Shown: positions 31,141 to 53,726 of the stretch, one piece after another
How the letters are laid out: each line of letters starts with the position of its first letter
How positions within the stretch are numbered: the first letter of the stretch is position 1
IMG/VR virus record: IMGVR_UViG_3300050821_006746
Coordinates: 1 to 64,000 of that record
Strand: one strand, 5' to 3'
Length of the DNA stretch: 64,000 bases
Source of the DNA: a virus
The notes under the pieces: model-generated
The model's database searches: none
What the model was told of the DNA's origin: nothing
Seen by the model: only the letters and a program-made list of their open reading frames with translations
Translations under genes and position numbers: made by a program

Positions 31141-31192
31141 GTGTAAGTTTTATGCCCCATCGGCAACCACCACATTGTTTCCACAAATCCCC

Positions 31193-32684: not shown

Positions 32685-32907
32685 CGCAAAACGACCGCCC
32701 TGGTTTAATGAGCGGTCGTTTTGCGGATCTTCTTCATTTACCTTTTGTGCATGTGTTCCTGCGCTACTCGCTCACTCTTTCTGCTGTGCTTCACTGCTCT
32801 ACCCGGTTACGATCCGTACTAGGATGAGTCATGCGAAACTTGTAGCCGGAATGTCCGACTAGAAACATTAATGGCAGAATCATAGCATATCAATGCAAAT
32901 CGTTCAA
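32685..32907 (-). ncRNA. Candidate antisense sRNA unit
   Basis: TTGAAC-N17-TATGAT promoter; terminator at 32685-32725. Confidence 0.5.
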
Positions 32908-32919
32908 CAAAGGAGCACT

Positions 32920-33288
32920 ATGGAAGAGATTAGACAAAACGATCGGGTACAGGTTGTAGGCATGTGGCCTGATAGTGCAAGAGGCTATGTCAAGCATATC
33001 ACCACGATTGGTGATATGGCTTATGTGGTCTTTGACAAGGTGCAACAGGCCAATGAGGAAGAGGATCACAACTGGTACGAGTACAACTGGTACACGGAAG
33101 AGCACCTGCTGAAAATCGAAAGCCTCAAGTTAGGTGATCGTGTCGAGATCATAGCAGAATGGCCTATTGGTGTGATGGGTACTACTGGCCAAAGGAGCAA
33201 CGATATGATCTGGGTTACGTTTGACCAGGAGCAAGATGGCAGTGATGGAGGCTGGTATCGAGAAGCACATTTGAATAAAATCGTGTAG
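32920..33288 (+). CDS. Tandem SH3/KOW-like domain protein
   Basis: Two repeats DRV.(V/I)...WP....G...V.FD.....WY.E.HL.KI. Confidence 0.65.
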   Translation: MEEIRQNDRVQVVGMWPDSARGYVKHITTIGDMAYVVFDKVQQANEEEDHNWYEYNWYTEEHLLKIESLKLGDRVEIIAEWPIGVMGTTGQRSNDMIWVTFDQEQDGSDGGWYREAHLNKIV

Positions 33289-33391
33289 AGCGTCAAACAG
33301 CCGTCACGCGGTCTTCCAAGAAACGTGACGGCCATTCTCATCCGGGCACCCACTAGTGTCACCTGGCTAGGGTGTCCAAAGAAAGTATACT

Positions 33392-33646
33392 ATGACTACC
33401 CAAATCAAGCAAGCTGGCTTGCACCTGAGCGCACCAATAGACAACTGCGTTGGCAGGCAATATCGTGTGTCAGATGAGTACTGGACGGAGATCGTGACAA
33501 TCGCCAATGGCTGCGTTCACTGCTCATGTGAGCGACATGAGCACATGGCAGAATGTGAGCACATCATGGTTGTCGAGAAGAGAGAAGAAGAGTATCGTAG
33601 TGAGACACAACGTAGGCTTGAGTATTGTTCGTTATTTGAAGTATAG
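33392..33646 (+). CDS. SWIM-like zinc-finger protein
   Basis: CSC......CEHI. Confidence 0.65.
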   Translation: MTTQIKQAGLHLSAPIDNCVGRQYRVSDEYWTEIVTIANGCVHCSCERHEHMAECEHIMVVEKREEEYRSETQRRLEYCSLFEV

Positions 33647-33649
33647 AAA

Positions 33650-35319
33650 GTGAATGATATGAGTGTAGAAGTAACAATAGGCGTAAGCACACGAGTAAAA
33701 GCTGATGTGCAATCCTACGGCATCGTAGAAGCCACCGTGATAGCGGTTATTCCAAATGGGGATGGTAGCGACATATATCAACTCGAATGGACCAATACTG
33801 CGTGGCCCAAAGGTGGGACGGCGGTCTCTCGCGATGAGATCATTGAAGTTTTATCAATGGAGGCATAGCATGGATCTCAAATATACCCGTAAAAAGCTCT
33901 CGGAAGCCGCTATGCGCGCAGAGCACGCAAGGACACTCCCACACGACGACAAGGTATTCCACGCCTTTACAGCGGCAATGGGCGCACTATACGCTTGCTT
34001 TGAGTGGCTGCCCGATGATTTGCAGGCTGATGCGAGACAGGCATACGATGCGTTGAATGCCACATTGGAGGAAGATGTCAATGGATGAGCATACAGTCTA
34101 CGCCGCTATAGAGCAAGGTGAGACGGAGTGGCTGGCCCGCATCCTCGAAGCAGACAAAGAGCCATACTACTTCGTGCCAGGCGGTATCTATAGCGGTATT
34201 GCTATGTTGTTCAAGAGCCTGCTGTGCAAGGCACTGAATAATGCATATATGGATGTGGTAATTGTGAGCGAGGATCTGTTTAATCGTAAGGTAGTTGAGC
34301 GAGAGGCACCTGATCTGCTGATTGAGCAGAATATGACACTACCGTAGAAAGAATAAACGCATGAGCGAATATCAAGACCTGAACATGAACAAATACTACA
34401 ACCCGATGGACGAGAACAAAATTTTCGCTTTACCAACGGATACTGTAACCGAACACCCAGACGCACAGGGGAATAAGACGCTTTACATTACCCGACTGCT
34501 TCCCAATGGGAGTCAAATGAACGCTACCACTAAACCTGATAGGACAATCATTTGTAATTGGCATGAATTTTATTGGCAGGAGCTAGAAAGCTATTAATTG
34601 CGGGTTGGTAGACTGCTGTTTGGCGCTTCAGTGTCAGATAGCAGCCTGTCAATTGGCAGGATGGAAGGGCCACTCTCTACTGAGCAGAATGAGAGTGGCC
34701 GCAGAGAGATGAGACGCAATCGTTGGAAGCGAGGTAGCATCTCAGGAGGATTGTATTATGCGAGAGCATAAAAAGCAAGAAACTACCACAGAACATCCCA
34801 CACCACAACAATGGGCTATCACACTCAAAGAGTACGAGATTGCCTTCTCAGATCGTCATTTCTGCCTGACATGCAGTCAATGGGTAGAAGATGAAGGGCA
34901 CGAATGCGCAGAGAGGCAGGCCGCATAATGAGCAGGAAGGAACTCACTCAATTTGTAAACGATGAGGCACTCGTTGATCTGCTGTACACGTCGCTAGAAG
35001 AAGCACATCCTATCGATTGTGAGTGCGCCTGGTGCAACGCTGAGCAAGGACGCGAGCAAGGCGATGGATCTCACGGTATTTGCGGGTATCACCGCGAAGA
35101 AGTCTATCAAGCGTACAAATCGAGTCGTGTGGCATAATGGACGATAAAACTCTTAGCGAGATTGAAACGCGTTTACGTCACGTTGAACAGGATCTCACTT
35201 CAATGCGCGAAGATCTCCAGAAATACGGAGAAGTGCAGGCGATAAGGGATCTGGCAATCGTCAACCTTGCCATCGATATAGAGCGAGTACAGGCGGTACG
35301 TGACATGATTGGCAATTGA
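33650..35319 (+). other. Chain of small hypothetical genes
   Basis: Abutting ORFs with RBSs; hairpin at 35324-35357 ends the chain. Confidence 0.65.
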
Positions 35320-35555
35320 ACGATATGAGAGCAGGCGCTTGATCGCCTGCTCTCATACTATCCGAGTCTTGTTTGTATAGTTGCATATTTCTTTAATGCA
35401 TAGTACACTTGATACGATTTACAAAACATTTTCACGTACACTAACTATACGTGACCTAAGAATGGTGACTCAAATTTTTTTGCGTACTTTCAACTGTGGT
35501 AGGGAGCAAGCACACAAAAAATCGACCGAGCCGCCTTTTCTTTTTGGCTACTTTC

Positions 35556-36371
35556 TCAGGCTTTTTGTCCAGAGATCATCAGTGCATCGATAAACATCTC
35601 GAAGCCTGGTGCCTCAAAGTCGCTGAACACCTGTGCTTTGATGCTTTCAAAAGCCTCCTCATCAAGCACTTCAAAAAGTACTGGTTTAAAAACCTCAAAC
35701 ACGCTGCGCAAATCGGAGAGGAACCCCTCGCGTCCTTCTATGCCAACGCTCAAATCAAGCACGTATGGCTTTTGCTGGATATTGACGAGTCCCAACGCGC
35801 CAAATATCTTAGCAAACTGGTCAACCTGTGCGTAAGATGTCCCCCGTCTTTGGAGCGCCTCCATGAAATATCCATTCCAACGCTGGAGCGCGTCGCTATT
35901 GGAGTGAGGGGGCTGCTTGAAATCGATCACGCAAAATGTAGCACCTGGCTTGAGCAAATGCGCACAGTCCGCGAATATTTCCTGCACTCGTGAACCAAGA
36001 AACCAGCATGCACAACGCATCTGGATATAATCAAACGCCTTTACTTTGCCGCTTGATTTTGCGATATCAAACATATCGCCCTGTTTGTAAGTGATATTCA
36101 CATGCTCTGTGGACGCAAGGGCACGCGCATAATCTAGCAAGAGGGCACTCTTATCCAGGCCAACACACTCAGCATTTGGATAAGCGTGCGCTACTCTTCT
36201 GAGCCATCCTCCTGTGCCGCAAGCCACATCTAGTACACGTTTAGGATGCATGTATCCTGTAAAAAAGAGTGGGAAGAGATCATTGAGCAATTCGTCTTGT
36301 AAACTGAGTCTCCTTGCCTCATCAGCGTCGCTAGGAGGGATAGGATACTGACCTTGCCTGCTGTTTTGCAT
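35556..36371 (-). CDS. Class I SAM-dependent methyltransferase (LaeA-like small-molecule/protein type)
   Basis: EARRLSLQD, VLDVACGTGGW, GLD, FDYIQMR, LLKPGA. Confidence 0.88.
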   Translation of the reverse strand: MQNSRQGQYPIPPSDADEARRLSLQDELLNDLFPLFFTGYMHPKRVLDVACGTGGWLRRVAHAYPNAECVGLDKSALLLDYARALASTEHVNITYKQGDMFDIAKSSGKVKAFDYIQMRCACWFLGSRVQEIFADCAHLLKPGATFCVIDFKQPPHSNSDALQRWNGYFMEALQRRGTSYAQVDQFAKIFGALGLVNIQQKPYVLDLSVGIEGREGFLSDLRSVFEVFKPVLFEVLDEEAFESIKAQVFSDFEAPGFEMFIDALMISGQKA

Positions 36372-36387
36372 ATCGCCTTCTTTCGTA

Positions 36388-37386
36388 TCAAAACGGAACA
36401 TACGCCCTCGTAGGAAGTTTACCACCATCAAACGAGTGCCGCATGTATCCTGCTAGGATAGGTTCTCCAATGTTTTCAAGCAACGTTGTGGCATTGTTGT
36501 GTATTCTCATGCAGAGATAGCGCTGATCGCTGTCAGGCAACCCTTGCGGATGGCTTTTGCGGATCGGATCTAACATCTCTGCACGTCGCTTTACATTATT
36601 GTGCCGCACAAAATCAGCATCCCACGTTGCCATCTGCTCCTCGTCAAGATCCCAATACCAATCACCAGCAAACTCCCTTGTTTTGCCCCACGCGAGTGAT
36701 CCAATACCTGGAACAGTAACGAAACCAGGATGCCAACTTGCACCGATCCACTGTGAATAGAGCAAGAGATTGGCTGGCAGATCGGGCGAGAGTGGATAAG
36801 GATACATACGTGGCATTTTCTCATCTGGCAATAAGCCCCACACGTAGAACCACGGCGCATCCATTCTCTGACGTGCTGGCATCCAGCGACGCTGTTCTCG
36901 CTTAAAGAGATAGCGCATCATGTAAATACTTGCGACACTATTTGGCTCTAGCGAACTGTGCTTGATTGATCTTAGCAAGTGCTTGTTAAGCCATTCCTGC
37001 ACAGTTGTACGTGGTAACGCCCTAGAAGATGAGTATCTCTCAAATTCACGTCTGAACCAGTCGGGTACTATGCGCTCTGTTTGTGTCCGTGCCTCAGCGG
37101 TTACGGCAGCCACAAGGAAGTACGAGATAGTCTCACGTGCTACTTGGATCTGTTTCCAAATCTGATCGAAAAGTGGTGGAGGCTCTTGTTTACCATAAGA
37201 TGGCAACTTGATTGCGTGAGGATACGCAAAGATATGACGCACGAACGCCTCTGGCAATGGTGCAAAATTTGCCAGATGTGGACGCCATATCGATTCATCA
37301 ATCTCAGGGATCTTGGTTTGTAGCATAAATTTAGGCATCCTTATCGCGTGGTGCTGTAAGTATATCACTCCATCCGTGCATTTCAT
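36388..37386 (-). CDS. Hypothetical protein, possible internal wHTH
   Basis: 332-aa ORF co-oriented with the MTase; RTTVQEWLNKHLL. Confidence 0.7.
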   Translation of the reverse strand: MKCTDGVIYLQHHAIRMPKFMLQTKIPEIDESIWRPHLANFAPLPEAFVRHIFAYPHAIKLPSYGKQEPPPLFDQIWKQIQVARETISYFLVAAVTAEARTQTERIVPDWFRREFERYSSSRALPRTTVQEWLNKHLLRSIKHSSLEPNSVASIYMMRYLFKREQRRWMPARQRMDAPWFYVWGLLPDEKMPRMYPYPLSPDLPANLLLYSQWIGASWHPGFVTVPGIGSLAWGKTREFAGDWYWDLDEEQMATWDADFVRHNNVKRRAEMLDPIRKSHPQGLPDSDQRYLCMRIHNNATTLLENIGEPILAGYMRHSFDGGKLPTRAYVPF

Positions 37387-37918
37387 CGATATTGCACGTG
37401 GAGGTTTGGCTATCTAATTAAGGACAAGGTGAGAAAGCACAGCAACTATACCACATAAGCCAACAAGAACACAAATAGCAATAAAACAAGTAAATAGCAC
37501 GCATCTCCCTTCTGGAAAGCAGAGAATCAACAAAAATACTCAGTATTTCCACCATGCTAAAAAGCACGAAAATCTGCACCTATCAACACCTCGTTGTGTG
37601 ATTTTCCACACTTCAGCCTTGTTATACAAGCAAGCGAAACGTCATAACACCTAATTGCACTGCAAATGCAGTATTCGAGTGAACAGGTAGAGACAAGCAA
37701 CTAGAGTTATAATAAAATGAGGAATTTTTCAGAAACGGCAAATAATCCGCGAACAAAGTACTTGCGGTTCGCGGAGGCATGCATTATTATTAGAGCATAT
37801 CATTTTTCTTTTTGCTCAGGGATGCATCTACTCATATCATTGCGCCAATCCTGAGTAACGAGACAAAACGCAATCATCCGGCTCATAAGAGCCTGCTATA
37901 TAGAAACCGAGGCACAAC

Positions 37919-38158
37919 ATGCCTAGCACAATGATCCAATCTGATATGCCCGTTGTTTTGGGGCATGAAGATGATATCCTCCTAACATTCAAAGAAACCA
38001 TGAAGATGTTGCGTCTTTCTCGCTCTGGTTTGTATCGCGAGATGTGGGATGGCAACATTACGGGATACAAAATCGGGTCAACCTGGAGGTTTTACCGAAA
38101 TGACGCAAGACAGTTACTGCGCCAGGTAATCTACCATCCCGAAAAACGCCCAGCTTAA
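37919..38158 (+). CDS. Excisionase-like HTH_17 protein
   Basis: LLTFKETMKMLRLSRSGLYREMWDGNITGYKIGSTWRF. Confidence 0.85.
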   Translation: MPSTMIQSDMPVVLGHEDDILLTFKETMKMLRLSRSGLYREMWDGNITGYKIGSTWRFYRNDARQLLRQVIYHPEKRPA

Positions 38159-38298
38159 CCCACACACTTACGATTTTTAATCGTGTGAATAGCCATATTA
38201 TCGGCTATCCTGATTAAACCTTGTACTATCAGGATCAATATGCTATTCTTCTGTCATTCGCTGTTTACAGTGACACAGCAAAGGAGATAACCGCCTTG

Positions 38299-38487
38299 AT
38301 GGCAGAAGAATGGATAACAGTGAACACCATCAGTGCCGAGCTTGGAATAAGCACTGAGAGCGTTCGCAAATACATCAACAAACCAGATGGTATAGTGGCT
38401 ACTCTTGTGGGCAACTCATACCGCATCAAACGTAAAGACTACGAAGACTGGCAGAAAAGACAGGAAGGCAAAAAGAAGAAAACTTAG
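38299..38487 (+). CDS. Excisionase-like HTH_17 protein
   Basis: WITVNTISAELGISTESVRKYI..VGNSYRI. Confidence 0.8.
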   Translation: MAEEWITVNTISAELGISTESVRKYINKPDGIVATLVGNSYRIKRKDYEDWQKRQEGKKKKT

Positions 38488-38503
38488 TGACCGTCAAAAG
38501 AGC

Positions 38504-38712
38504 AAAAAGATAGCGCCGCCACCTCCTACAGTTTCGGCGCAATCGTCGGCATTCTCATACCTGGCTGGATAGATACTTATCAGGCTTACGCCTTCGGGCA
38601 CAAAAAAGCACAGGCCATCAAACCTCTGCTCCGCCTCAATTTCAGTGACGAGGTTTGTGTCCAGATAAGTCACTATGCTGCATAGCATACGTGTTGAATG
38701 ACCGATTGTCAA
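38504..38712 (-). ncRNA. Candidate antisense sRNA (~175 nt)
   Basis: TTGACA-N17-TATGCT at 38712-38684; hairpin with U-tail at 38504-38544. Confidence 0.55.
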
Positions 38713-38766
38713 GAATTTGGGCAAAAAATCTGAGGCAAAGAGCGCCCCTGACGGTCATTAGAGAGC

Positions 38767-38985
38767 ATGAGAGACAAAAGAAGAAATGAGAACTATCTTA
38801 CTGTAAAGCAGATAGCAACAATACTTGGCGTATCAGAAAAAAGGGTGCGAGATTACATCAAAAATGAAGGACTCACACCAAAGAAAACACGAGGACGTAA
38901 ACCGTACTTAGTGCATGTAGATGTGTTTAACGCATGGCTTGAGACGCGTACAACATCTGAAGGAGAGAGCAGCGATGACGAATAG
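38767..38985 (+). CDS. Excisionase-like HTH_17 protein
   Basis: YLTVKQIATILGVSEKRVRDYIKNEGL. Confidence 0.8.
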   Translation: MRDKRRNENYLTVKQIATILGVSEKRVRDYIKNEGLTPKKTRGRKPYLVHVDVFNAWLETRTTSEGESSDDE

Positions 38986-40306
38986 GCTATATATGGCAAT
39001 CACCAAAGCAATTATCGTTGTCTCTCTCCTCGTGTTGGCAGTTATCAACACCGCTAAACGCTGGCAATCCCGCAAGGAGCACCACGAAGTGCAACCTACA
39101 CCACAGGATTGCCAGCAACAACAAGAAATAGCCTCCATTATCGAGGAAGAATTTCAGCGAGAAGAGAATTTCAAGGTGTGGTACGCGCAACGCATGGATG
39201 CATCACGCATTATCTTGCCAGAGAAGCAGGTACGCAGGCTCTACGAGACGTATCTGAGCAATGAGAAAATTATCAAATCGCGAGTAGTCAGTGAGGTAGC
39301 AGATTGAAACGACAAGAGAAAAAGACCATCGAAATGCGGGTGTACGTCCCGCAAGGCATACACCGCCTGCTAGTCCAGAGACAGAACAATAATAAGCAAT
39401 TAGACAAGCCCTTCAAGTCGCTATCAGATTTTGCTCTAGATGCGCTGATAGATGGCCTATTTCGAGAAGCGTACTGCGAACAATTGCAAAAAATGAAAGA
39501 GCAACGGACATGAGTGTAGTTGCAGACCCCCAATACGAGGCAACAGAACCGATGGTATCCGTGTTCTCCCAGAGCGGCGTAGATCATCCTGTTGTCTTAC
39601 CAGAGCTGGTATTACCAGCGCAAGCGCAACCTGCTATCACGCACGACGCACATACGCGACTAGATGACCTCCTATGCGTCAAGCAAATGCAGCAAGGTTT
39701 CAAACTTGACATCATTGCCGTGTGGCTGGCTATTCCGTTGCTTTTCGGTTTAGTCGGTTGTGCCTGGGTCTTATTTATTGCTCAATTTTTCAGATTTTTT
39801 AGTTGATTAGGAGTATTCATGCACGAAGAATTAATTATAGTTGCCTACGATCTCCTGAGCAGTTACGTATTGCCAGGAAAAGCCTACGATGTGCTTGAAG
39901 CACTGGCGTACAGATCATCAATAGTAGATCTGGAACAAGAAGATCCTGATGACATTAATTATAACAAATTGAGAGTTAGTGCCATGAAAGACGCCGTATC
40001 TGCTCTGCACGCTGCGCACAAAAAATGGGACGAAGAAGCCAGCAAGCGACAATCCTTTGCCATTATCGATCCCATTTGGAACGAAGTGGAGATGCAAGCT
40101 TGACTACCACAACACGAGTGCCCTACCGCAAAGTCGATGTGCTAGCACTGCGCATTGACCCCAAGCGAACCTGTGATGTAGTCGAGGACCAGCCAGACGG
40201 CGCTACACACGTCAAAGTACGGTGGTTCGGTAAGACGATAGAAGAATACATCAGAAACGAAGATGTCATGCCACTTGGGCAAAGGCCGATAGAAGAGGTA
40301 ATATGA
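38975..40306 (+). other. Chain of small genes including TM proteins and an RHH-like protein (39304-39513)
   Basis: Overlapping start/stop codons. Confidence 0.6.
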
Positions 40307-40467
40307 GCCATTTTGACTAGCGAAACACATACCAATTGGTACGCCTACACGCACTGATAGGTACGTGCTTATGAGTCACAGTAAATCAATATTAATCTGG
40401 AATGATTCCGCTCAGCGGAAAATTGGTAAAAATTAAGTAGAAGAAAGTACCAGGCAGGAGTTGAGAA

Positions 40468-41034
40468 ATGAACAAAATACCAACGCTCTTTTTGCGCAAT
40501 CCTGAGAACATGAAACTAGTTACTCGCGAGGTTAACCCAGATGCGGCGTGGGTAGTCGACGTTTACGGCTTCCCTACCGTCAAAAAAGACGGCACAAACA
40601 TTCGTGTCGCCACAGAAAACGGCATTTGTACCTTTGTTGAAAAGCGGCGCAATCCCACGCGAGAAGAAAAGGCAGTGGGCGCTGAACCTGGCTACGTTGA
40701 TGCGCATCCCAACGATCCTGCCGACAAACACATTTTTGCTGCTGTGGATGCTACCAATTTCACTGATTGGCCTGATGGTGCATGGCCGTGTGAGGCGTTG
40801 GGGCCAAAAATACAGGGTGGCATTGAAAGTCGTGTGCCGTGTCTCTATCCATTTTCATTTGAGCCTGAATATATCTACGCGCAATTTCTGAGAGATTTCG
40901 ATGCCATCAAAGCGTATCTGGAGTCGCATCCTATCGAGGGGATTGTTTGGCACGATCGGGTACATGAGCGATTCGCGAAGATCAAGCGTAGGGATTTTAA
41001 TCTACCGTGGCCTCCAACAAAGAGAGAGAAATAA
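40468..41034 (+). CDS. RNA-ligase-like nucleotidyltransferase (DUF5565-like)
   Basis: KxDG motif (KKDGTN), EALGPKIQG, IEGIVW, FAKIKR. Confidence 0.7.
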   Translation: MNKIPTLFLRNPENMKLVTREVNPDAAWVVDVYGFPTVKKDGTNIRVATENGICTFVEKRRNPTREEKAVGAEPGYVDAHPNDPADKHIFAAVDATNFTDWPDGAWPCEALGPKIQGGIESRVPCLYPFSFEPEYIYAQFLRDFDAIKAYLESHPIEGIVWHDRVHERFAKIKRRDFNLPWPPTKREK

Positions 41035-43142
41035 TTGGACAGAAAAGAGAAGGCTAACCGACGCGCCAAAGATGCCGTTATTGCGTTGCTTGTTGCATCC
41101 GAGCAGCCACCCAATGAGGCAGAGGCGCTAACTTCGATGTTGGAATGGGAAGACCTAACCTATACACAAGTGCTTGAGGCGCTTGATTATAACCTCAAGC
41201 ACAACGCCTATCGCAATGAGCAACTGGAGAACCATGCTAACTTATGTATTCGAGAAGCAGAGAAGGTGAAGGCGCGCAAACAGAGGGAGGCGGTTAGTGT
41301 CTAGACTTACCGAACCACGCCAGTACAAGCAGCGCACCCACGAAGAGATGCAAGACGCACTCAGACGCTTCTGCAACGCTGCATGGGGCAATCATGGGGC
41401 AAATGAGCGTAGTGTCTTCTCTATCCCACCTGACGATGAGGACGCTGATATTATTTTCTCTGATGTCATGCACGAACTGGTAGAGGCACGTAAACGGATC
41501 ATAGAACTTGAGGCAGAGGTACAATCGTTGCGAGAAAGAGAGAAAGAATAATGTGGGATATTCCTAAATACTGGTTAGTAGCATTCGGCATAGGATGCGC
41601 ATTCTTATTGCTTCTTTTGGCGTGGATCACAATATTTGTGCCACTCTTCAATCAAGCCGATTACAACAACTTCAATATCGAAGAGCAACTAGACAGAGCA
41701 GAGCGCATGGGCATTCTGAGCGCACTCAAGTGCTCAGTGAAGATGGCAACCATCTACAAATTGACGTTTGCCCATAGGATCGCCTGCTTAATGAGTGAGG
41801 TGCAGCCATGATCCATAGCGACGATCCCAAGATAACATTGCTCAAAGAGTGCTACGCATTGCTAGACGATATCCGAGATGAGGGTGTGTACAAATCAGCA
41901 ATCATTCCTGGTCTGCTTGCCCGTATAGTCCCGTTTATTTTTAGCCCTATCCCATACGAAGAGGTTTCCACAGTACGCTTTCGTTGTCCTGGTTGCCAAT
42001 CGGTGATGCTTGAGGTTTTACGCAGCGATTGGGCGACATGGGACCACATTACATGCGATTGTGGCAAACGTTACCGGGTTGTATGGTGTGAAGGCGAAAG
42101 CAAAGCGTATATTTTGGAGGATGTGCAGCCATGACTCATACTATCCCTGGTCGCGCTCATACGCCAGAACAAAAACGCGCAATCATCGAGCGCTTTTACG
42201 AAGCCTGGCTTGCTGTTCCTAATTGGCGGTTGCCTCAACTTATTTACAACGCTACTGGAGGCAAGGACATTTTCTATGTAGAGGATGAGCCTTTTATGGC
42301 AGAGATAGAGCAAATATCGGAACGATGGAGGCAACCATGACCCTCATCCTCTGGGCAACATCTCCCATCACATCAACGCTCGCCATATGGGCACTATCGC
42401 GCATCATCGGCGCTGGTATGTACTATTTCGCCGGTAGAGGAAGTAAGGTGCAATCGTGAAACAGCAGTATCACAAAACGGTCAAGCTCAAGGGATGGCAG
42501 ATCGAAGACGGAGAGGACATCGACAAAGCAATACAAGAGGTTTTGGAAATTATTGCTCAGCAAAAAGGAACAATCCACCTGATCGATTTCAAAATCTATC
42601 AGATAGATACACAGCCATTGCTAGCGCACCGCGAGACGTTCTTGACGGTTATGGCAGAAGAGGGGGAGTTATGAACACACCATGCCCACTCTGCAATACC
42701 CCAACAGACCTACACTCTGATTGTCCTGGCTATCCTGGTCGCGGCAGCAAAACAGGCTTTGTCATGGCATGCAACCCTCCATGCGGCAACGCCTGCCGCT
42801 TTGAGTGCCCTTCCTGCCATTGGTGGTATCGCACGCCAAACTGCCGCGATGCGAGCAAGATGGGCATTCGTCCCGATTGGCTAGACGCTGTACTGGCAGT
42901 GTTTGAGGAGGCGGAAAATGCGCTTTAAAAATAGGCAACGCAAGATAAGCAGAGGCGTAATGCCAATTCAAGAAATCCTAGACCAATACGGAGATATGCC
43001 CATGTGCGACTTTGTAGACCTTGCCATAACTCACGGTCTTATTCCACTGAACATGCATCTCAGCCCATACGATGAATTGGCAATATACCCACAACATCGG
43101 AGCACCCCAGCGCTGTCAGTGCAGAATGGGCCTGCATCATGA
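41035..43142 (+). other. Chain of small hypothetical and Zn-ribbon genes
   Basis: ATGA-coupled ORFs. Confidence 0.65.
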
Positions 43143-43195
43143 GCACAACACAAAAGCGGCGCACATTTCGCACGCCGCTAACCTCATCTGAATAC

Positions 43196-43435: not shown

Positions 43436-43561
43436 GTGTTATGTATCTCCTCATCGCTTATGTGGTTTGTGGTCTCTGAACATTTTCGGTGTATTTCTCT
43501 CAAGTTTAAATCACTGCCAAACAAAATTCAAGCCCAACTATCGAATGTACGTGTATTCACC

Positions 43562-43590
43562 TTGACAAACTTAGTGCAATCATGTAAGAT
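43562..43590 (+). promoter_or_regulatory. Promoter divergent from the XRE gene
   Basis: TTGACA-N17-TAAGAT. Confidence 0.7.
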
Positions 43591-43631
43591 ATCTAGAAAG
43601 AAAATCCGTTAAATTGCTAAGGAGACAATCA

Positions 43632-44996: not shown

Positions 44997-45541
44997 GCAT
45001 AGCCAATCCTGAAAACGTTCTCTGTACGCATCCCAACCAGTACCCGAAATTCGAGATTGACGTGATACCGGGCACAGATTGGGAGCTAGAAATCCGAAGT
45101 GAGCATGTCATTTATGCCTATCGATGGGATGACGAAGAATTTACCATGCAATACATCCTGTGGCCAAACGGAAACGATGCCATATTCACATCTCGTGACG
45201 ACGCCATAGAGGCTTGTAAACAATTCGAGGAGACGAAAACAAAATGAGCGAAGAGAGACAAATTGAAATTCGCCCTTTTGGCCAAATTGTTTGTCATCGC
45301 ACGCCGTCTAACCCGAAGTTTATGCGAGACCAGCATGTGATACGTCGCAACGCTACCGATGAGAGCAAGTTGGGCAACTTTGTAGCCTACTGCGAGGATG
45401 CGCGGCTTGCTTGGGTCTTCTGGGCAGGCGAGACTGAGGCAAGGAAAGTGCTACTCTCGAATTTGGCATCTATCGAGGATTGGCGTGTTGCTCGTGAACA
45501 ACAGGCTAACCTTGCGAATTATTGGAAATAGGAGCATCAAC

Positions 45542-45865
45542 ATGGAAAAACCGACTATTGTCTGTCTCTGCGGTTCCACTCGCTTCTCAGATGCATTTCA
45601 CGAAGCCAACTTACGCGAAACCCTGGCAGGCCGCATTGTCTTATCCATCGGTTGCGATTTCAAGAGTGACACCGACCTTTTGCTAGCCGGTGAACTCACT
45701 ACGGCAGACAAACATCGCCTAGACGAGCTGCACCTGCGTAAGATCGATTTAGCCGATGAGGTGCTTGTGCTCAACGTTGGCGGATACATCGGACAATCGA
45801 CAAGCAACGAGATTGCCTACGCCCAAAACCACAACAAGCCTATTCGTTGGCTGGAAGCTTTGTAG
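45542..45865 (+). CDS. Nucleoside 2-deoxyribosyltransferase-like / DUF4406-like protein
   Basis: IVCLCGSTRF...HLRKIDLADEVLVLNVGGYIGQST.NEI.YA. Confidence 0.7.
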   Translation: MEKPTIVCLCGSTRFSDAFHEANLRETLAGRIVLSIGCDFKSDTDLLLAGELTTADKHRLDELHLRKIDLADEVLVLNVGGYIGQSTSNEIAYAQNHNKPIRWLEAL

Positions 45866-46464
45866 TTCGTATTTTACTCCTTCAGTGACAGGAGAACACA
45901 TCATGTACACACTCGAAGAACGAGACGGCGCATTATACGCCAAAGAAACGAGCATTAACGAATGGCTTCCGCGCCAGGACGAAAACTGGTACTTGCTCGC
46001 CACCCCTTACCGAAATTTCGTTTCGTGGTTTGCTTCTGAGGAAGCAGCTCGCCAACTTCTCGGCATGGAAATCCGTGCTACCATCAACAATCCTGCGGTG
46101 GTTTTCCGAAATCACTTAGGTTGGCTTTTCCATCGGGCCGACGCCAGTTCTAAACCCGCCTATACCGAATCTACCCCCATACCTTCGCCAAAGATCAAAG
46201 GTCGCTGCAAGGTTGTGTGGCACAAAGGCGCATGGCACAAGGAAACCGTGAAGGGATTGGTGAAAGTCGCATGAAACCAAGCCTCAAACTACTCTACTAC
46301 TCGCTAGAACGAGCGAGCATGACCTACGCCGAAACAGGCTCACCCTATGCTCAGCAACGCGCAATTGAACTCATCGGAGAATTGCACCAATGTCTAGACG
46401 ATGTTGAACAAATCATCCTCTCAGAAGAGCGCACGCCCACTACAGGCGAATCGGAGGCGCAAGG

Positions 46465-47157
46465 ATGAAAGTTCTTATCGTAGATGAAAATTCTAATATG
46501 GTCCACATGCTCTCTGGCCTGCTCAAGCATCAAGTGGGTATCGATGTACTGGAGGCCAGTTCTCTCAGGCAAGTCGAGCAAGGCTGGCAGTGGAAACCTG
46601 ATCTTGTACTCATTGACCCTCTAGACGATACGGGCATCGACTTTTGCACCCAACTGCGCAAGAAACATGACCCGCTCATCCTGGCAATGAGCAGAGACAG
46701 AGCAAACGAAGCGCCCTATCTCGAAAACGGCGCTGATGCTTACATTCAGAAGCCGTTCCTGCCTGAGAAAGTTCTTGCGCATATCCATGCTCTTGCTCGT
46801 AGACCACGTTCGCAAGCCAGTATCAATAGCGGCATTATGCGCATAGGCAACCTGACTATTGACTCAGTGCGCAACCAGGCTCAAGCACAAGACTCTACGA
46901 TTGCGCTGACTACCATAGAGTGCCGATTGCTCTGGTATCTCGCCAACAATGCACCGCGTATTTGCTCATATGCTTTGCTAGTCGATTATGCATGGAATAT
47001 CAATATCCCTTGTGTCCGAGAAAAAACGGACACCAACTTGCTCAAAGTGTTCATGTTCCATTTGCGCAAGAAACTGGCAACACTTGGCCGCATGGGAACA
47101 GTCGAGAATGTTGTAGGCACTGGATATCAATTTATCCCAGCAGAGGAGCAATCATGA
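46465..47157 (+). CDS. OmpR-family response regulator (orphan)
   Basis: Receiver VLIVDE..PDLVLID..GADAYIQKPF; wHTH LTTIECRLL..LRKKL..NVVGTGY. Confidence 0.9.
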   Translation: MKVLIVDENSNMVHMLSGLLKHQVGIDVLEASSLRQVEQGWQWKPDLVLIDPLDDTGIDFCTQLRKKHDPLILAMSRDRANEAPYLENGADAYIQKPFLPEKVLAHIHALARRPRSQASINSGIMRIGNLTIDSVRNQAQAQDSTIALTTIECRLLWYLANNAPRICSYALLVDYAWNINIPCVREKTDTNLLKVFMFHLRKKLATLGRMGTVENVVGTGYQFIPAEEQS

Positions 47158-47516
47158 GCGACAACGACCTACATCTTGAGATTAACGATAAATGCATCGA
47201 TAAGGGAACGCCTGTTTTATTGGGCAAAAACACAGTCTTTCACTTTTCGCCGCCGCTCAACGAGGATTACTGGATATTCCGTGTCATGCTACACAAAGAT
47301 CAGGCAGTTGTGGGATTTCCGAAGTACTCAGGAATAGGCATTGGCTTTGCTCAAGAGGAGCACTACAACGTTAACCTGCCATACAGGTGCAATGCTGCAA
47401 TGGTCTACGATCACATCGAAGAGAACAAGCGCTACGATGAGATCACCAAAGAGCAGTGCATACAGGCAATACACCTGATCCAAGAAGCAGCAGAACGGTA
47501 CCAGCAATCACAATGA
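47154..47516 (+). CDS. Hypothetical protein
   Basis: ATGA overlap, RBS GAGGAG. Confidence 0.65.
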   Translation: MSDNDLHLEINDKCIDKGTPVLLGKNTVFHFSPPLNEDYWIFRVMLHKDQAVVGFPKYSGIGIGFAQEEHYNVNLPYRCNAAMVYDHIEENKRYDEITKEQCIQAIHLIQEAAERYQQSQ

Positions 47517-48315
47517 CCAGAGACCATCTTTGGCTCGCACTCAGCGGCGCTCTGCTCGTGGCGTTCGCGCTTGCCGCTATTTGGCTGTTTAGTGCGCATT
47601 ATTCGCTATTATTTGTTTCGTTTTAGGAGCATTTTATGAGTAAAAGTGGTGGATACCTTGATGTGGTTAATGACGATCTTATCTCTCGACGTGGCTTGAC
47701 GCTCAGACCACACCCAAAGCAGGTTGTGCTTGAAGGCATCCAATCTGTGGAGGATAATCGCTTTCCAGATGGTCGTGCCCTGGCACCAATAATTAGCAAA
47801 CACGAATGTGCGTGCTGGGTATGCCATCCTGAGATGTTTCCTGATGGTGAAGTTGAGGAAGGGACTGTGAGCGTGCGCAAATGGCTTACACCACGTTTCT
47901 GGAAAACGACTCTCGATGGACAACCATGCGGGTTTGTCAAAGAGGCAAAACCAGGACGACAGGGTCATGTGTGGGTATCACGAACGCCGCCACATGCCTG
48001 CTCTTGTGGTAGTCACTATTCTTGCACAATGATGTTGCATGGCAACGTAACGGTCACACCTGACGGAGATGATTACAAATGATTGTACAGCAACCCATCA
48101 CAGCACAGCAAAAAGCCGAGATGAAGACCCTGGCAAAGCAGTGCAAGGCAAAGGTCTCATTCAGTGGGCCACACATCGCACTCACAACCAAGTGCTTCTC
48201 AGGGCGCTATCCCAACAACATGGACGGCTATAGCGCCGCACTGGCAATACTTGAGAAGTTAACGCCGAAACAATCGTAGTGCATCACTTATCCCGTCAGT
48301 GATCGGGAGGACATC

Positions 48316-48927
48316 ATGAATACGCTTATACCCATTGATCCAATAGAGAATAATTTGTTAGGCAAAAGCAATGAATGGTACACACCATCTCGCTATATCG
48401 AAGCCGCAAAGGAAGTCATGGGCGGCATTGATCTTGACCCTGCTTCGAGTGAAGTAGCCAACAAAACCGTTAAGGCAGCAAGGTACTACACCATCAAGGA
48501 TAACGGACTCCTGCAGGATTGGCGTGGTCGCATATGGCTCAATCCCCCCTATGGACGCACGACTAAAATGCAGGGTCAGCACAAAAGCACCATCTATTTG
48601 TTCACCGAAAAGCTTATCAAATCCTATGAGAGCGGAGAAGTTGAGCAAGCTATCATTTTGGCAACCACTGAGGTAAATGCGCGGTGGTTTTATCCGCTCT
48701 GGAAATATCCCATATGCATACCTGACCATCGCGTCCATTTTATGGTTGATGAGAAGCTAGAAAAATATTGCCAGATGTTTGGCACCTGCTTTGCTTACCT
48801 CGGACCTAACGAAGCTCATTTTACAGAAGTCTTTTCTAGGTTTGGGCATGTTGTCAAAACCGTTGGACGGCCAGCGCCAAAGCCAATAGCACTAGACCTG
48901 TGGACACCAACAAGCGTGGCACCGTAA
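48316..48927 (+). CDS. Phage DNA N6-adenine methyltransferase
   Basis: EWYTP, IDLDPAS, WLNPPYG. Confidence 0.88.
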   Translation: MNTLIPIDPIENNLLGKSNEWYTPSRYIEAAKEVMGGIDLDPASSEVANKTVKAARYYTIKDNGLLQDWRGRIWLNPPYGRTTKMQGQHKSTIYLFTEKLIKSYESGEVEQAIILATTEVNARWFYPLWKYPICIPDHRVHFMVDEKLEKYCQMFGTCFAYLGPNEAHFTEVFSRFGHVVKTVGRPAPKPIALDLWTPTSVAP

Positions 48928-49132
48928 CGCGTTCCTTAGCCTCTCAGCACGAGGTGACCCATGACATCATTCAGCGCCTATGCGCTTACTAATAGATACA
49001 GATTCACCAACAATAGTTGCAGATTCTTGCAATCACTTGCATTTCACGGCAAATTCGTATATCCTAGTACTGACACGTTGACTTCGTTAGATCAGTGTGT
49101 TATCATGATAACGAGCGAACAGGAGAACCAAC

Positions 49133-49333
49133 ATGTTTATGGCAGAAATAGCGTACACGCCAGAGGAGGTAGCAAAGAGGCTCAGCATCACGCCGCGCAT
49201 GGCAACAGAGTATCTACGAACGGGCAAAATACCGGGTGGGTACAAGGTAGCTGGTCAGTGGAGAATAGACGAGCCAGACCTCACGAACTTTATAACAGAG
49301 CAGAAGCGCAAGGCTTCACAAAAGGACTCATAG
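49133..49333 (+). CDS. Excisionase-like HTH_17 protein
   Basis: YTPEEVAKRLSITPRMATEYLRTGKIPGGYKVAGQWRI. Confidence 0.85.
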   Translation: MFMAEIAYTPEEVAKRLSITPRMATEYLRTGKIPGGYKVAGQWRIDEPDLTNFITEQKRKASQKDS

Positions 49334-49344
49334 GGGTTATCCCC

Positions 49345-49493
49345 AAAAACGACATTGAGCCACCTAAACTTTGGCGAGTAGCAGGTGGCCCATGAACAAA
49401 GATCTCAGCAGAACGTTTAATGCGTTCTGACGAGCGACTTTGTGTCCATTCACTGGACAAATTAACTATACACTATCCGGCAAGCCGCGTCAA
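49345..49493 (-). ncRNA. Candidate antisense sRNA (~115 nt)
   Basis: TTGACG-N17-TATAGT at 49493-49465; three hairpins; U-run at 49345. Confidence 0.55.
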
Positions 49494-49553
49494 GGTGAAA
49501 CACCAACGACGACTTGAAACAGCGAGACACATACAAGCGAAAGAAGGAGAGCG

Positions 49554-52500
49554 ATGAGCACACAACCAACGCCATTGATGATTAAAACTCTAGAGCAAAT
49601 TGGGAACGACACCGTAACTGGATGGGGCTACAACAACAACCCGAATGGACAGCGCAACCTCAATGCCAACATAACCCACGCATTGATTAAACGTGGACTG
49701 CTAGAGCCTGCTGGTGAAATGTCATGGAGTGGGCAGAACACGCCTGTGTACCGTCTCTCTGAGTCAGGGAAGCAAGCATTGAGTGCTGCACTACCGCCCA
49801 CGACACCGAAAGATGAGTCTTGGAAATTAGTGTTTGCGAGAGGTGAACAATGGGCATAACAAAAATCACGTCAGCGCAACAGCAGATCCTCAACCAAATG
49901 CGCAGAGGCTATGCGCTCATTTCTCATATGGACACCAAATACCGTTCATTCAACATGCCTGCTGAGCATGGCGGATACCTGCTCAACACAGCGTCTTGTG
50001 CCATGAAGCCCGTTCTTCTCTCGACAATTAAAGCCATGCTTGGTAAAAATCTGATTGCCGAGGAAAAGCGCTATGTCTCATCAGATGGCTTCTGTGGTGA
50101 ACACCAGACGGAGAGGTGGCGCATTCACTACAAACTCAACCTGTGCATTCACTGCTATGAGCAGCCTGCTAGCGATCAGTTCAATGGCATGTTCTGCGCT
50201 GCATGCGCCAATGAGATGGGTGAGCAGTGGGAAACCGAACAAAACGAGCGTGTGAAGGAGATGGCGCAATGAACAAAAGAATGATCACGGCTATTACACC
50301 CAGGTCTGATTTTGTTGAGGTCGATCTAGCCTGTGGGCACACAATACGGTGGTTCCCGTTTAGCGAACAAACCCCTCAGCAATTGGCAGAGCACATGCAA
50401 AACCTAACACCCAAGCCAATACAAGTAGGCAAGACAAAGTTAAATTGCAAGGAGTGCACACAATGAGCAACGAAGAACGACAAGTATCGTGGATTGGCAC
50501 ACTCCACGTCACGTACAAAGCAGGCGATACCGGTATGATTATCCCCGAATATATCCTTGCCCGCATGACACCAGAACTGGTAGCAAGCGAATTGGAAAGC
50601 ATCGCACGACAAATCAGAGACGGTCAAGTACCGGATCAAGTCAAGCCGATCGATGAGGTTGATATTCTCCACCTGCGGCAAATTGCAGAGTGGCTAGAGC
50701 AACGCTATGGCACATCCAAGGAAACCATCGCGCTCCAGCCACAAGCGAAAGGACAACAACAATGATTACTGACGAGGCGATACTACAAGCAATCGAATAC
50801 AGGATGGATCAGTTAAACGCAACATTCAGCCTTGAGGATGGGCACATTTGCAGCAATAACGCTGATCTAGGAACCATTTCAAAAGTGTATCATCTTCCAC
50901 TTCATTGTCTTGCCCAACTAATCTGGAAAAGTAAGGAAGAGGCAGAGGTGAAAGCATGACACCAATCACAGCCGCCGCCACTATCCAGCGCATTGCTGAC
51001 AGTGGACTCGATATCAGCACTGAGGATTATCGGGCACTGGTAGAGGTTGCCCAATGGCTAGCGACGTTGCAAGAGCCAGTGAGCACGGAACTTGACGACA
51101 TAATTGACACACTCGACGAAACAATTGATGAGATTGTAGATACCATCCTTGACGACAACAATGTTGACACCCTCAACGATGAAGAAAGAGTTTCGCCAGA
51201 AACGTGGCTTTCTGCAAAAACAGAAATTTTGGCATTGTTGGCTCAGCGCAAGGAGAAGGCACAATGAGCAAACTCAGTTTCGCTTGTGGTCACACCGAAG
51301 AGCAAGAGCACGCACTGGTCAATGAGTTCTTTGACGGCTTGCGCGCTTACATGAAACAGTGTGGGCGCTTCATGGGCAAGCCGATTGCCGAGAACTGGCA
51401 AACACTCGACGAGCAAGCAAAAGATCACCACATTAATGTTCTGTTTGTGCGCCATGCGGTTACGCTCACAAAGTTGGCACACGACGCGATACACGAGGCG
51501 ACAAAAGCATGAACCACGAAGGCAAGCACTACATACACACCACTAAAGCGTGGTACTACGCTGATTGGGCACCACAGGAGTGGCAAGACGAAATTCGCTT
51601 TTTCACAGAGGGATCGGGAGCAATGTACATGCGCTGGTATGCTCGTCCCAACTTAACATCACGTTTAGAGGTGAACATAGGCGAGATGTATGCACTGACG
51701 ACACAAACGGAACTACTTTCAACGTTGGCTCACATTGCTGTGAGCGGCGAGAAAATGGCACCCGATGATTTTCGCGAGATCCTTGAGGAATGTGGTTTTG
51801 TGGATAGCACGCCTCTTACACAAAAAGGGCACCCCAACGAGGAGACACAATCATGATAGGGTTATCAGACATCGCAGAACAGGGCGAAGAATCGGGAAGA
51901 GAAGAAGCGGCATGTGATTATCCGTTCCTTCCTGATCCTCTAGATTATCGAGAATTGCGTCAATATGGGCGTGGTCGTGCGCAAGGCTTATACCGATTAC
52001 GCGGCAAAGCAGCACGTGTGTTTGCGCACAACTGGTCTATAGGCTACATAGCTGAGTGCAATTTATATAAACTGGTTTGCTCAGCAGAATTGCAGGAGGC
52101 GCAATCATGATAACACTCACCACAGGTGCACATCTCGCCAGTGTGCGAGAACGCCTCACAGCGCCGCTAGACGAGCAAAGCTATAACGACCTGGCAGTGG
52201 TAGCGCTCTTCTACTCGACGCACGCCACGACTGAGCAGCGTGTTGAGGCGGCATTGCTCTATGTGGAGGTGGTTCGCAAGGCGGCAGAGGCGAGACGAGC
52301 AACGCGACAAGATGATATAGCATGACACGTTGACATAATGTTGAGACAAGCGAGCAGTAAGGATAGCAACATGGAACAAGAGAAGCCACTCACAATCGAG
52401 CAGCGCATTACTCGTATCCGCCAATGTATGCAGGCTGCGGGCGAGGATTGCGTAGCATTGGGTAATCAGTGGAGCGAGTTTGGCGATTGGAACAATGGGC

Positions 52501-52779
52501 CACGCTTCTCTGTTCGCAGTCAGATAATGCCTGAGAATATGCAGGAAGCCACAAAGGAGACGCCACAAAATGCAATTTGAGCAAGCAACCAAGAACCTGA
52601 CAGATCGCACTGACTGCAACCCGAATGATTATGAGGCAATTCAATACTTCCTCATCGAGTTTGCGGAGCACATTCTTATGCATACTACACCTGCGGCAGG
52701 GAGCACGATCAAGAAGTATCAGGGGATGTCTGTAGAGCAAATCGTGGTGGCTCTTCCCGATATGCCAGAAATGGAGTGA
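49554..52779 (+). other. Chain of ~12 small hypothetical genes
   Basis: ATGA-coupled ORFs with RBSs. Confidence 0.65.
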
Positions 52780-52782
52780 CCT

Positions 52783-53208
52783 ATGAGCAGAGAACTACTT
52801 TTCCGCGCCTGGACTGGCAAGACGATGATGTACCAAGATCGGCAATACTTGGGATCATTCATCCGTCGCGTGGTCATACAAGTCTTGATGGATCACGATT
52901 TTCCCGAAGCGATGAAGCGCAAAAGCTACTTGCCCAAAGGGACCAAAATTGACGATTATCTCATGCAATACATCAACAATGAGGATATCTGCGGCAAAAA
53001 AATCTACGACGAGGACATTGTGATGCTACGTGGTAGCAACTACCCGACGCGCTATCAAGTGTACTGGAATGTGGATCAGTGGGACGTGAAAGATGCTCAG
53101 GGCAATGGCTATGATCGTGGCTACTACGAGAGTGGCTCTATTAACTGGAGAAGTGGCTTGGAAGTTATCGGCAATATGCGCGAAACCCCTAACTTACTCA
53201 ACAATTAG
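52783..53208 (+). CDS. YopX-family protein
   Basis: RELLFRAW...LMQY....GKKIYDEDIV...LEVIGNMRETPNLL. Confidence 0.85.
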   Translation: MSRELLFRAWTGKTMMYQDRQYLGSFIRRVVIQVLMDHDFPEAMKRKSYLPKGTKIDDYLMQYINNEDICGKKIYDEDIVMLRGSNYPTRYQVYWNVDQWDVKDAQGNGYDRGYYESGSINWRSGLEVIGNMRETPNLLNN

Positions 53209-53338
53209 CCTGCCCTACGGCAGTGTACATAGAGGTGTCCAGTGACCACCAACATCAGCGCCCAGCGCGCATATGATACAATCGACTTGACATTAGCCAA
53301 CAGATCAAGTAAAATGGCATTAGCCAACAAGGAGAATA

Positions 53339-53566
53339 ATGGATTTGGAAGCAGTAAAGGAGATCATCTCTTCGCAGGGATGGACACCGCAGGAAAGGAA
53401 GAAGCAGAGAGGGACGCTCTATTTGTACGCTGCCAAATGGGATGTAGAGGAACAAAAAACCATGTGGCGATACATTTGTGCGATATCCCAGGCGGAATAT
53501 CTCACAGAGGAGCAAATACTAGCAACACTCAGCAGACCACCGAGAACAAAAAGAAAGCCAGCTTAG
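53339..53566 (+). CDS. Small basic hypothetical protein
   Basis: RBS AAGGAG. Confidence 0.65.
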   Translation: MDLEAVKEIISSQGWTPQERKKQRGTLYLYAAKWDVEEQKTMWRYICAISQAEYLTEEQILATLSRPPRTKRKPA

Positions 53567-53726
53567 CGCTGGCTAATGATAACAGCGACCCGCCATTGGT
53601 TGGCACCCTACGCGGGCCGTAAAACAAACTGAACCGCCAGGCAACGTGTTCAGCGTTGTCTAGAGGCTACGTGCGCCTTGTGATAGGCACATTGTTCATT
53701 TTACCTGATTGAACAAAGGAATGCAA
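53548..53726 (-). ncRNA. Candidate antisense sRNA (~145 nt)
   Basis: TTGCAT-N17-TAAAAT at 53726-53698; terminator AGCCAGC / GCTGGCT with U-tail. Confidence 0.55.

Follow-up and report, generated by a model that had tools for sequence, protein, structure and literature searches.

Candidate antisense and small-RNA units in the spacers of an uncultured phage genome: a few credible units mixed with probable chance sites

The DNA considered here (the window) consists of bases 1-64,000 of a 109,141-bp IMG/VR virus record, IMGVR_UViG_3300050821_006746, which has direct terminal repeats and is judged to be complete. The original prediction was that its early operons contain a dispersed family of small-RNA units, in which near-consensus promoters point against the operon and read into structured intergenic DNA that ends in a hairpin. 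Six of the listed units have a -35 and a -10 hexamer separated by 17 nt (32907, 33412, 34778, 38712, 49493 and 53726, named by the position of the promoter), and two have extended -10 sequences (18260 and 20849). We find that the listed units are a mixed bag with two classes, and not one system. We consider it an even call whether the strong ones are independent cis-antisense or small-RNA units that resemble the OOP RNA of phage lambda, mixed with chance sites. Judging from their sequences, the promoters of the 38712, 49493, 32907 and 18260 units, together with a few unlisted sites, are probably genuine promoters for the host RNA polymerase.

All six hexamer pairs are present on the minus strand at exactly these positions, and the extended -10 sequences at 18260 (TGcTATACT) and 20849 (TGgTATAAT) are present as well. 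Their quality varies. The description near-consensus fits 38712 and 49493 (10 of 12 positions) and 32907 (9 of 12 plus a TG), but it does not fit 33412, 34778 and 53726. Each position on both strands of the genome was scored and ranked with a standard sigma-70 position weight matrix (PWM), which gave 15.4 bits and rank 14 for 49493, 14.5 bits and rank 19 for 38712, and 14.5 bits and rank 21 for 32907. These three scores are at the level where the sites of this genome are overwhelmingly intergenic, which we use as the mark of a sigma-70/sigma-A promoter. The other three are below that level, with 11.1-11.4 bits and ranks of 80-99; their -35 hexamers match only in TTG, and they do not have the TG.

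The phage uses sigma-70/sigma-A-type promoters. The best twelve matrix hits in the genome all point at a gene start, 11 from spacers and 1 from inside a gene on the sense strand, and the spacers between co-directional genes contain eight sense sites of at least 14 bits where 0.32 would be expected. The gene calls behind these numbers (about 205 genes and 93.8 kb of coding DNA, with spacers making up 14% of the genome) are home-made with manual fixes, and some of the "spacers" may hold uncalled genes. A strong site is defined here as one that scores at least 14 bits with the PWM or matches TRTGnTATnnT, and a site faces no gene if there is no gene start within 300 nt. Genome-wide, 18 strong spacer sites face a gene start within this distance and 10 do not. 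The expected number of the latter is 1.64 +/- 1.25, and none of 300 shuffles reached 10; equally strong sites in the coding DNA number only six. For three of the 10 orphan sites, the "spacer" is a long one with a known RNA locus or uncalled genes in it, which leaves seven true orphans. Five of these are on the minus strand (18252, 18302, 38684, 49465 and 69145) and two are on the plus strand (19641 and 104371). Therefore, the excess of promoters that face no gene is real for this genome, and its membership differs from the listed units.

An unbiased count of 8-mers points to the same kind of site. The most intergenic-specific 8-mer in the genome is TATGCTAT, with all nine copies in spacers: 18262, 32889, 38239 and 38689 in the window, and 69123, 69155, 73975, 74235 and 93355 beyond it in the complete record (G000:C1). 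It reads as a TRTG extended -10, and TATGCTAT(A/G/T)(A/C)T fits TRTGnTATAAT. The wider pattern TRTGnTATnnT occurs 16 times, 13 of them intergenic; nine of the 13 face a gene and four are orphan or antisense sites, including 18262 and 18312. The TRTG extended -10 (the "-16 region", T-17G-16T-15G-14) is a described element of Gram-positive and mycobacterial promoters (PMC6212719, PMC5036317), a likeness that concerns the class of promoter only and not the RNA units. The copies of TATGCTAT at 69123 and 69155 are head-to-head, 32 bp apart, in a spacer between convergent genes. TATGCT and AGCATA form a short inverted repeat at 18245-18262 and again at 38674-38689.

The two strong antisense sites inside the rightward operon have a layout in common. 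At 49.4 kb, a sense promoter of 16.3 bits (TTGACT-17-TATCAT with TGTGt, which is of the TRTG type) and a 66-aa HTH_17 gene (49133-49333; Pfam HTH_17, 3.6e-9) occupy 49078-49333 on the plus strand. The antisense promoter TTGACG-17-TATAGT (49465-49493, minus strand) is 61-89 nt upstream of the next sense ATG at 49554. The predicted antisense RNA (49340-49458, minus strand, about 118 nt) would have three stem-loops (-45.2 kcal/mol, with which the centroid agrees; z = -4.0), and its last hairpin, 49351-49385, has -18.7 kcal/mol on the minus strand versus -13.8 on the plus strand. At 38.6 kb, a TRTG extended -10 promoter (TATGCTATTCT) and a 62-aa HTH_17 gene (38299-38487) occupy 38239-38487 on the plus strand, and the antisense promoter TTGACA-17-TATGCT, which contains TATGCTAT (38684-38712, minus strand), is 55-83 nt upstream of the next sense ATG at 38767. 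The predicted antisense RNA (38497-38677, minus strand, z = -3.0 on that strand) would be about 70 nt long if it ends at a weak terminator (38608-38629 followed by T6), or about 180 nt long if it ends at a canonical terminator at about +170 (38509-38544 followed by TTTTTGCTCTTTT).

In both cases, the HTH_17 gene has its own promoter 37-60 nt upstream, and this promoter and the antisense promoter are convergent and separated by 420-470 bp. The predicted RNAs would end about 10 nt before they reach the HTH_17 stop codons (RNA ends at about 49340 and 38497, stop codons at 49333 and 38487). At 38.6 kb, the stop codon is directly adjacent to the T-run of the canonical terminator. Only four of the roughly 205 genes are HTH_17 genes, and the spacers after them make up about 6% of the co-directional spacer DNA. 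The probability that both strong in-operon antisense sites would follow HTH_17 genes by chance is roughly 0.004.

The 18260 unit is predicted to be the best small-RNA candidate. It has two tandem leftward TRTG promoters in 18252-18331 on the minus strand, TTGGCG-18-(TATGg)TATATT at 18331-18302 and TATGcTATACT at 18262-18252. The candidate RNA (18163-18246, minus strand) would be about 80 nt long, or about 130 nt from the upstream promoter, and its predicted fold is -40.9 kcal/mol (z = -6.1) on the minus strand versus -22.3 on the plus strand. Because its 12-bp stem contains five G.U pairs, this stem can form only on the minus strand. The terminator at 18205-18176, a 13-bp stem followed by T5, is a textbook one and the second-ranked in the genome. 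There is no open reading frame (ORF) with a plausible start in this unit.

A palindrome at 18269-18285, which overlaps the -35 region and the spacer of the 18262 promoter, is a putative Fur box. By eye, 17 of 19 positions match the Fur-box consensus GATAATGATAATCATTATC at 18266-18284. The 7-1-7 form of the Fur box, TGATAATnATTATCA, is found with one mismatch at 18271-18285 and at 20414-20428, and there are four matches to it in the window versus 0.33 expected. The 17-bp sequence AATGATAATCATTATTA occurs at 18269-18285 (plus strand) and again, unchanged but inverted, at 20414-20430 (minus strand). Between the two copies is a 2.1-kb segment with a zinc-ribbon/HTH_23 gene, a 187-aa leftward gene, two small ORFs and an orphan unit that resembles a small RNA. 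The second copy encodes the last codons of ORF 20426-20644. The copies may mark the ends of an inserted cassette, or they may be operators, either of Fur or of the phage. The orphan unit in this segment, which was not listed, is on the plus strand at 19613-19735 and consists of a 16.1-bit promoter (TTGACA-17-TATGAT) and a predicted RNA of about 85 nt. The promoter overlaps the stop codon of gene 19434-19616, and the RNA would end in a 12-bp bidirectional terminator, flanked by A5 and T6, between convergent genes.

The 32907 unit differs from these in its surroundings. Its promoter, TTGAAC-17-TATGAT with a TRTG (TATGcTATGAT; 32879-32907, minus strand), abuts the Shine-Dalgarno sequence of sense gene 32920. 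To its left, an 83-aa ORF read from the sequence (32353-32604, minus strand; no Pfam hit) has an AAGGAGG Shine-Dalgarno sequence and a GTG start. Because this ORF is leftward, 32605-32919 is a divergent control region. Therefore, the statement that the units are inside operons holds for 38712 and 49493 and not for 32907. A symmetric hairpin flanked by A4 and T4 at 32685-32723 has the shape of a bidirectional terminator, and we predict that it either terminates a leftward RNA of about 190 nt made from the 32907 promoter or serves as an attenuator before gene 32353-32604, which has its own extended -10 (TGaTATACT) near 32650.

This arrangement raises the question of whether the strong leftward promoters simply drive small leftward protein genes of a moron-like or leaderless type. 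In that case 32907, which is 285 nt upstream of a leftward gene with a good Shine-Dalgarno sequence, would be the distal promoter of the 83-aa gene, and 38712 would drive a 59-64-aa ORF (38494-38688). We consider this explanation improbable. For 32907, the bidirectional terminator is located between the promoter and gene 32353-32604, which has a promoter of its own as indicated above. For 38712, a 64-aa protein (P0126) is 98% identical to ORF 38494-38673, although P0126 is probably this genome's own gene call, and the ORF is barely above the codon-usage threshold. The 59-aa version of this ORF, 38494-38673, had only a self-hit among 1.8 billion representative proteins, and it has no Shine-Dalgarno sequence. 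Moreover, the -10 hexamer contains its ATG, and the T-run of the terminator makes up its last codons. The 49.3-kb unit, like the 18.2-kb unit, has no credible minus-strand ORF with a plausible start.

The remaining listed units make up the second class. The sites at 33412 (TTGCTT-17-TATACT, 33384-33412, minus strand, 11.1 bits, rank 99, without TG) and 34778 (TTGCTT-17-TACAAT, 34750-34778, minus strand, 11.4 bits, rank 82) are probably due to chance. The -10 of the first is directly before ATG 33392, and the -10 of the second is the GGAGG-to-ATG spacer of gene 34758. The site at 53726 (TTGCAT-17-TAAAAT, 53698-53726, minus strand, 11.4 bits, rank 80) is 59 nt upstream of a 17.0-bit sense promoter at 53785-53813. 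The extended -10 at 20849, which had been regarded as a mirrored unit in a leftward operon (TGgTATAAT, 20847-20855, plus strand), is not among the strong sites. It is made of the start codon and the Shine-Dalgarno spacer of leftward gene 20637-20849, and the hairpin at 20889-20918 has a T-run on neither strand. Because of their locations, either in A/T-rich spacers between a Shine-Dalgarno sequence and an ATG or upstream of a strong sense promoter, these four units look like chance hexamers near ordinary sense-strand intergenic hairpins. For example, no hairpin in the 34778 unit is followed by a T-run, and the 160-nt structured element next to it (34598-34757, plus strand, three hairpins, no Rfam match) is predicted to fold as a sense-strand and not as an antisense element: -67.5 kcal/mol (z = -5.4) on the plus strand versus -46.0 (z = -3.2) on the minus strand. 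Its hairpin 34600-34657 has -31.9 kcal/mol on the plus strand versus -11.9 on the minus strand.

Chance could be extended to the strong units as well. In this case all of the antisense promoters would be non-functional hexamers in A/T-rich spacers, and the hairpins would be processing or stability stems of the sense mRNA, or else non-canonical terminators or attenuators. We think this possible but doubtful, and a number of observations point its way or weigh against the existence of RNA units. A generic promoter scan of 32-52 kb gave 21 sites versus 26.8 +/- 5.7, which is no excess. In co-directional spacers, two antisense sites (38712 and 49493) reach 14 bits versus 0.39 expected, which is marginal (P of about 0.05), and three of the six hexamer units are at the level of noise. 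Minus-strand terminator-like sites found with a simple pattern are not enriched (6 versus 3.3 expected, P = 0.12), and the A-richness of the plus strand accounts for part of the T-runs on the minus strand. The hairpins had been described as often having a U-tail. Canonical minus-strand tails are present at 18205-18176 and 38544-38509; elsewhere, the tails are weak (33300-33332 and about 53630), absent (34778) or, at 49351-49385, a T5 run 7 nt past the last stem, which makes a non-canonical terminator where termination is uncertain. Hairpins 10-15 nt after stop codons are common in this genome and often better on the sense strand (34600-34657, 13869, 14242 and 64809), and clusters of hairpins after stop codons have been described (PMC8355165). 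The predicted RNAs overlap no ribosome-binding site and no coding region, and so a simple translation-blocking mechanism does not apply. Finally, the sole hint about the host, given by a named homologue of the DUF5565 protein and by a metagenome-assembled Chloroflexia genome, is Chloroflexota, and the promoter rules therefore had to be taken from the phage itself.

However, chance does not readily explain the orphan-promoter excess (10 versus 1.6 genome-wide), nor the fact that TATGCTAT is intergenic in nine of nine copies with orphan sites among them. The five-G.U stem and the textbook terminator at 18.2 kb make sense only on the minus strand, and both strong in-operon sites follow HTH_17 genes. 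Most of the unit spacers are structured, with z values of -3 to -5. Several of the units had also been said to straddle the ribosome-binding site or the start of the next sense gene. Their promoters do overlap the gene start, but the predicted RNAs begin to the left of the Shine-Dalgarno sites and so would not mask them.

The units are unrelated, independent one-offs, and the proposal that they form a repeated RNA family has to be abandoned. The best E value in an all-against-all blastn comparison (word size 6-7) was 0.02 among about 36 pairs, and blastn found no paralogue of any unit in the 109-kb genome. RNAalifold, which we used to look for covariation and a consensus structure, gave 0 pairs for the six predicted RNAs; for the two best units it gave four trivial pairs at -0.44 kcal/mol. 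The five loop sequences that were said to be related are 7-mers that are frequent anyway (3-8 copies of each in 39 kb), and TTCCAAG and TTGGAAG at 33.3 kb are one and the same loop on the two strands. A search of the 64 kb against Rfam, with the C4 model included, produced no hits at the gathering thresholds. When two stretches were searched at E values up to 1, they gave only sub-threshold noise and no C4; the noise consisted of two unrelated matches and a Thr_leader match (25.6 bits, gathering threshold 55) to the terminator hairpin at 32.7 kb.

The lack of a C4 match, together with the lack of short seed repeats in the units, also leaves the suggested analogy with P1 C4 and P4 CI RNAs without support. 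The likeness is that C4 and CI, too, are small RNAs of phages; in plasmid-type or satellite prophages they regulate early or antirepressor genes, and there is a ParA-type gene here too. However, C4 and CI arise by processing of longer sense transcripts and work via short seed repeats, which were not found in the units described here. What is left of the suggested RNA-based control layer is the excess of orphan promoters and three units with the anatomy of a small RNA, that is, a promoter, a structured RNA of 80-180 nt and a hairpin with a T-run (38712, 49493 and 18260). The family and the three noise-level units are not part of it.

The original prediction also noted that the two HTH_17 units share TTTGTGTCCA. 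This is correct; it is present at 38654-38663 and 49439-49448, at almost equal offsets from the two promoters, and has no other exact copy in the 109 kb. A shared peptide as its source was ruled out by the reading frames, which differ between the two units. The original prediction offered antiterminator-binding hairpins as an alternative. In that event a nut-like or regulator-binding site on the sense strand (GACGAG-N(1-4)-TTTGTGTCCA plus a hairpin) would follow the first HTH (helix-turn-helix) gene, and the antisense hexamers would be incidental. The position after a small regulator gene resembles that of lambda nutR, which lies after cro. An AlpA-type HTH protein is reported to be a processive antiterminator in Pseudomonas aeruginosa (PMC7969949). 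We nevertheless regard a nut-like site as very unlikely. There are only two copies, other pairs of units share 10-mers by chance, the BLAST E value for TTTGTGTCCA is 0.06-0.2, and there is no common fold around it. The pattern TGGACACAAA-N(1-4)-CTCGTCA has 13 matches in IMG/VR, all in coding DNA and attributable to chance. Furthermore, canonical sense-strand terminators on which an antiterminator could act are missing: a search for simple intrinsic terminators of this kind on the plus strand of 32600-55200 (22.6 kb of rightward genes) gave 0 versus 1.1 expected.

Searches for relatives of the units gave little. No similar sequence was found by megablast and blastn against 50,697 phage records, and IMG/VR scans with six different proteins found no syntenic locus; one of the loci (L002) has one gene in common with this phage. 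A metagenome scan with the DUF5565 protein gave 36 loci, all of them mosaic and none covering any unit. Two loci with HTH_17 homologues have no convincing convergent promoter, and the single match falls in a GIY-YIG coding region. Two scans of GTDB genomes gave distant matches only. Closer relatives are known only as proteins: P0121-P0123 (Logan) are 78-84% identical to the 49.1-kb HTH_17 protein, and P0125 (ENA) is 80% identical to the 38.8-kb HTH_17 protein.

If the strong units are independent cis-antisense or small-RNA units, which is the reading we favour, their activity can be pictured as follows. The motifs, their positions, the folds and the enrichment described above are observed; the firing of the promoters, the ends of the RNAs and their function are inferred from them. 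The strong promoters would fire leftward inside or beside the rightward arrays and produce non-coding RNAs of about 80-190 nt, each terminated at a hairpin with a T-run. In the HTH_17 cassettes, the antisense RNA would stay within the spacer that directly follows the regulator gene, and the terminators at the 3' end of that gene would keep antisense transcription out of it. The most likely action would be in cis, through collision or occlusion of RNA polymerases, pairing of the antisense RNA with a read-through sense transcript, or both. The outcome would be that expression from the regulator gene into the downstream genes is limited or processed, as in the effect of lambda OOP on cII. The reverse orientation would allow the terminator of a small RNA to be inside an operon without stopping sense transcription. 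A role in trans is equally compatible with the anatomy.

Lambda OOP, the classic single example, is a short cis-antisense RNA made from the promoter pO, which is convergent with cII (PMC5869508). Like OOP, the two HTH_17 units have their own predicted sigma-70-type promoter directed against an early rightward operon, a predicted terminator and a short predicted RNA on the 3' side of a small HTH gene near the operon start (38299-38487 and 49133-49333). OOP overlaps the 3' end of the cII coding region, whereas the RNAs here cover only the spacer and would overlap the regulator gene only after read-through; there is no similarity in sequence and no evidence for a role of RNase III. A second comparison is with the Pseudomonas phages PAK_P3, YuA, LUZ19, LUZ24 and phiKZ, in which ONT-cappable-seq and RNA-seq identified 20 antisense RNAs with their own start sites, and 9% of the phage terminators are antisense (PMC10914365). 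As here, these phages have several independent antisense units per genome and some antisense terminators. Theirs have been demonstrated experimentally, whereas ours are predicted; the lineages are unrelated and nothing is shared in sequence.

There is also a resemblance to the coliphages 186 and P2. In these phages convergent promoters (pR/pL and Pe/Pc) bracket a small HTH gene of the excisionase fold, and transcriptional interference is expected. The opposing promoter in 186 and P2 drives an immunity repressor and the promoters are tens of bp apart; here it would drive a short non-coding RNA and the distance is 420-470 bp. If the units are real, they would be additions to the documented class of phage antisense RNAs in an unexplored lineage.

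Several other features of the genome deserve a description. From 32.9 to 62.4 kb almost all of the genes are rightward, small and closely packed, and they include methyltransferases, an HNH endonuclease and a DnaC-like loader. Strong internal sense promoters in the 32600-55200 array are at 43562, 49078, 53287 and 53785. Directly upstream of the array are a gene for ParA-type partition and a GntR regulator. The ParA gene and a partner gene are followed by 1.15 kb without a called gene (30912-32064), which looks like a partition site and then a control region. This stretch has a perfect inverted repeat of 18 bp (30983-31032) and, related to it, an inverted pair of 35 nt (30963/31106). Its rightward promoter at 31193 scores 16.7 bits, and CTTGACAA occurs three times (31192, 31540 and 31700). 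The palindrome GTCTAGAC, mostly in the form GTCTAGACG, occurs at 12 sites versus about 1.7 expected. Four of these are in spacers; nine are in the window (422, 4333, 15500, 16636, 17929, 25653, 41299, 46392 and 59603) and three are beyond it.

Canonical terminator shapes (11-bp stems followed by T-runs) are also present in antisense orientation inside rightward coding regions, at 43155-43179 and 18759-18794, both on the minus strand. Short perfect G+C-rich hairpins are found 10-22 nt after stop codons and before the next Shine-Dalgarno sequence, mostly in leftward operons. Examples are at 13526-13550, 13869-13894, 14242-14268 and 21667-21696, and beyond the window at 64246-64268, 64809-64832 and 66525-66544. 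Several of them have similar loops (TCGCA, TACTCG and TTCG), some are more stable on the sense strand, and they have a T-run on neither strand.

What do these results mean for the phage? The narrower gain is that three to four credible candidates have been separated from four chance ones and that the claim of a family has been removed. The promoter signature of the phage (TTGACA-17-TATAAT and TRTGnTATAAT) can guide the annotation of the remaining genome. A broader possibility, which we hold to be unlikely, is that this phage, possibly of a Chloroflexota host, has a real RNA layer with at least 6-8 stand-alone or antisense small units in its spacers. Candidates are at 18.2, 19.6, 32.8, 38.6 and 49.4 kb, and beyond the window at 69.1, 74 and 104.4 kb. 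Most of the units would have TATGCTAT-type promoters, and they would include two HTH_17 genes gated by convergent antisense RNA and one small RNA with a near-perfect Fur box over its promoter.

In conclusion, if the strong units are transcribed, they would be new cis-antisense or small RNAs at the head of early units in an uncultured and lineage-isolated phage. The recurring layout, in which a small regulator of the excisionase fold is met by a convergent non-coding promoter, would then be a possible timing or insulation device. A small RNA with a Fur box over its promoter would, if true, tie a phage small RNA to the iron status of the host.

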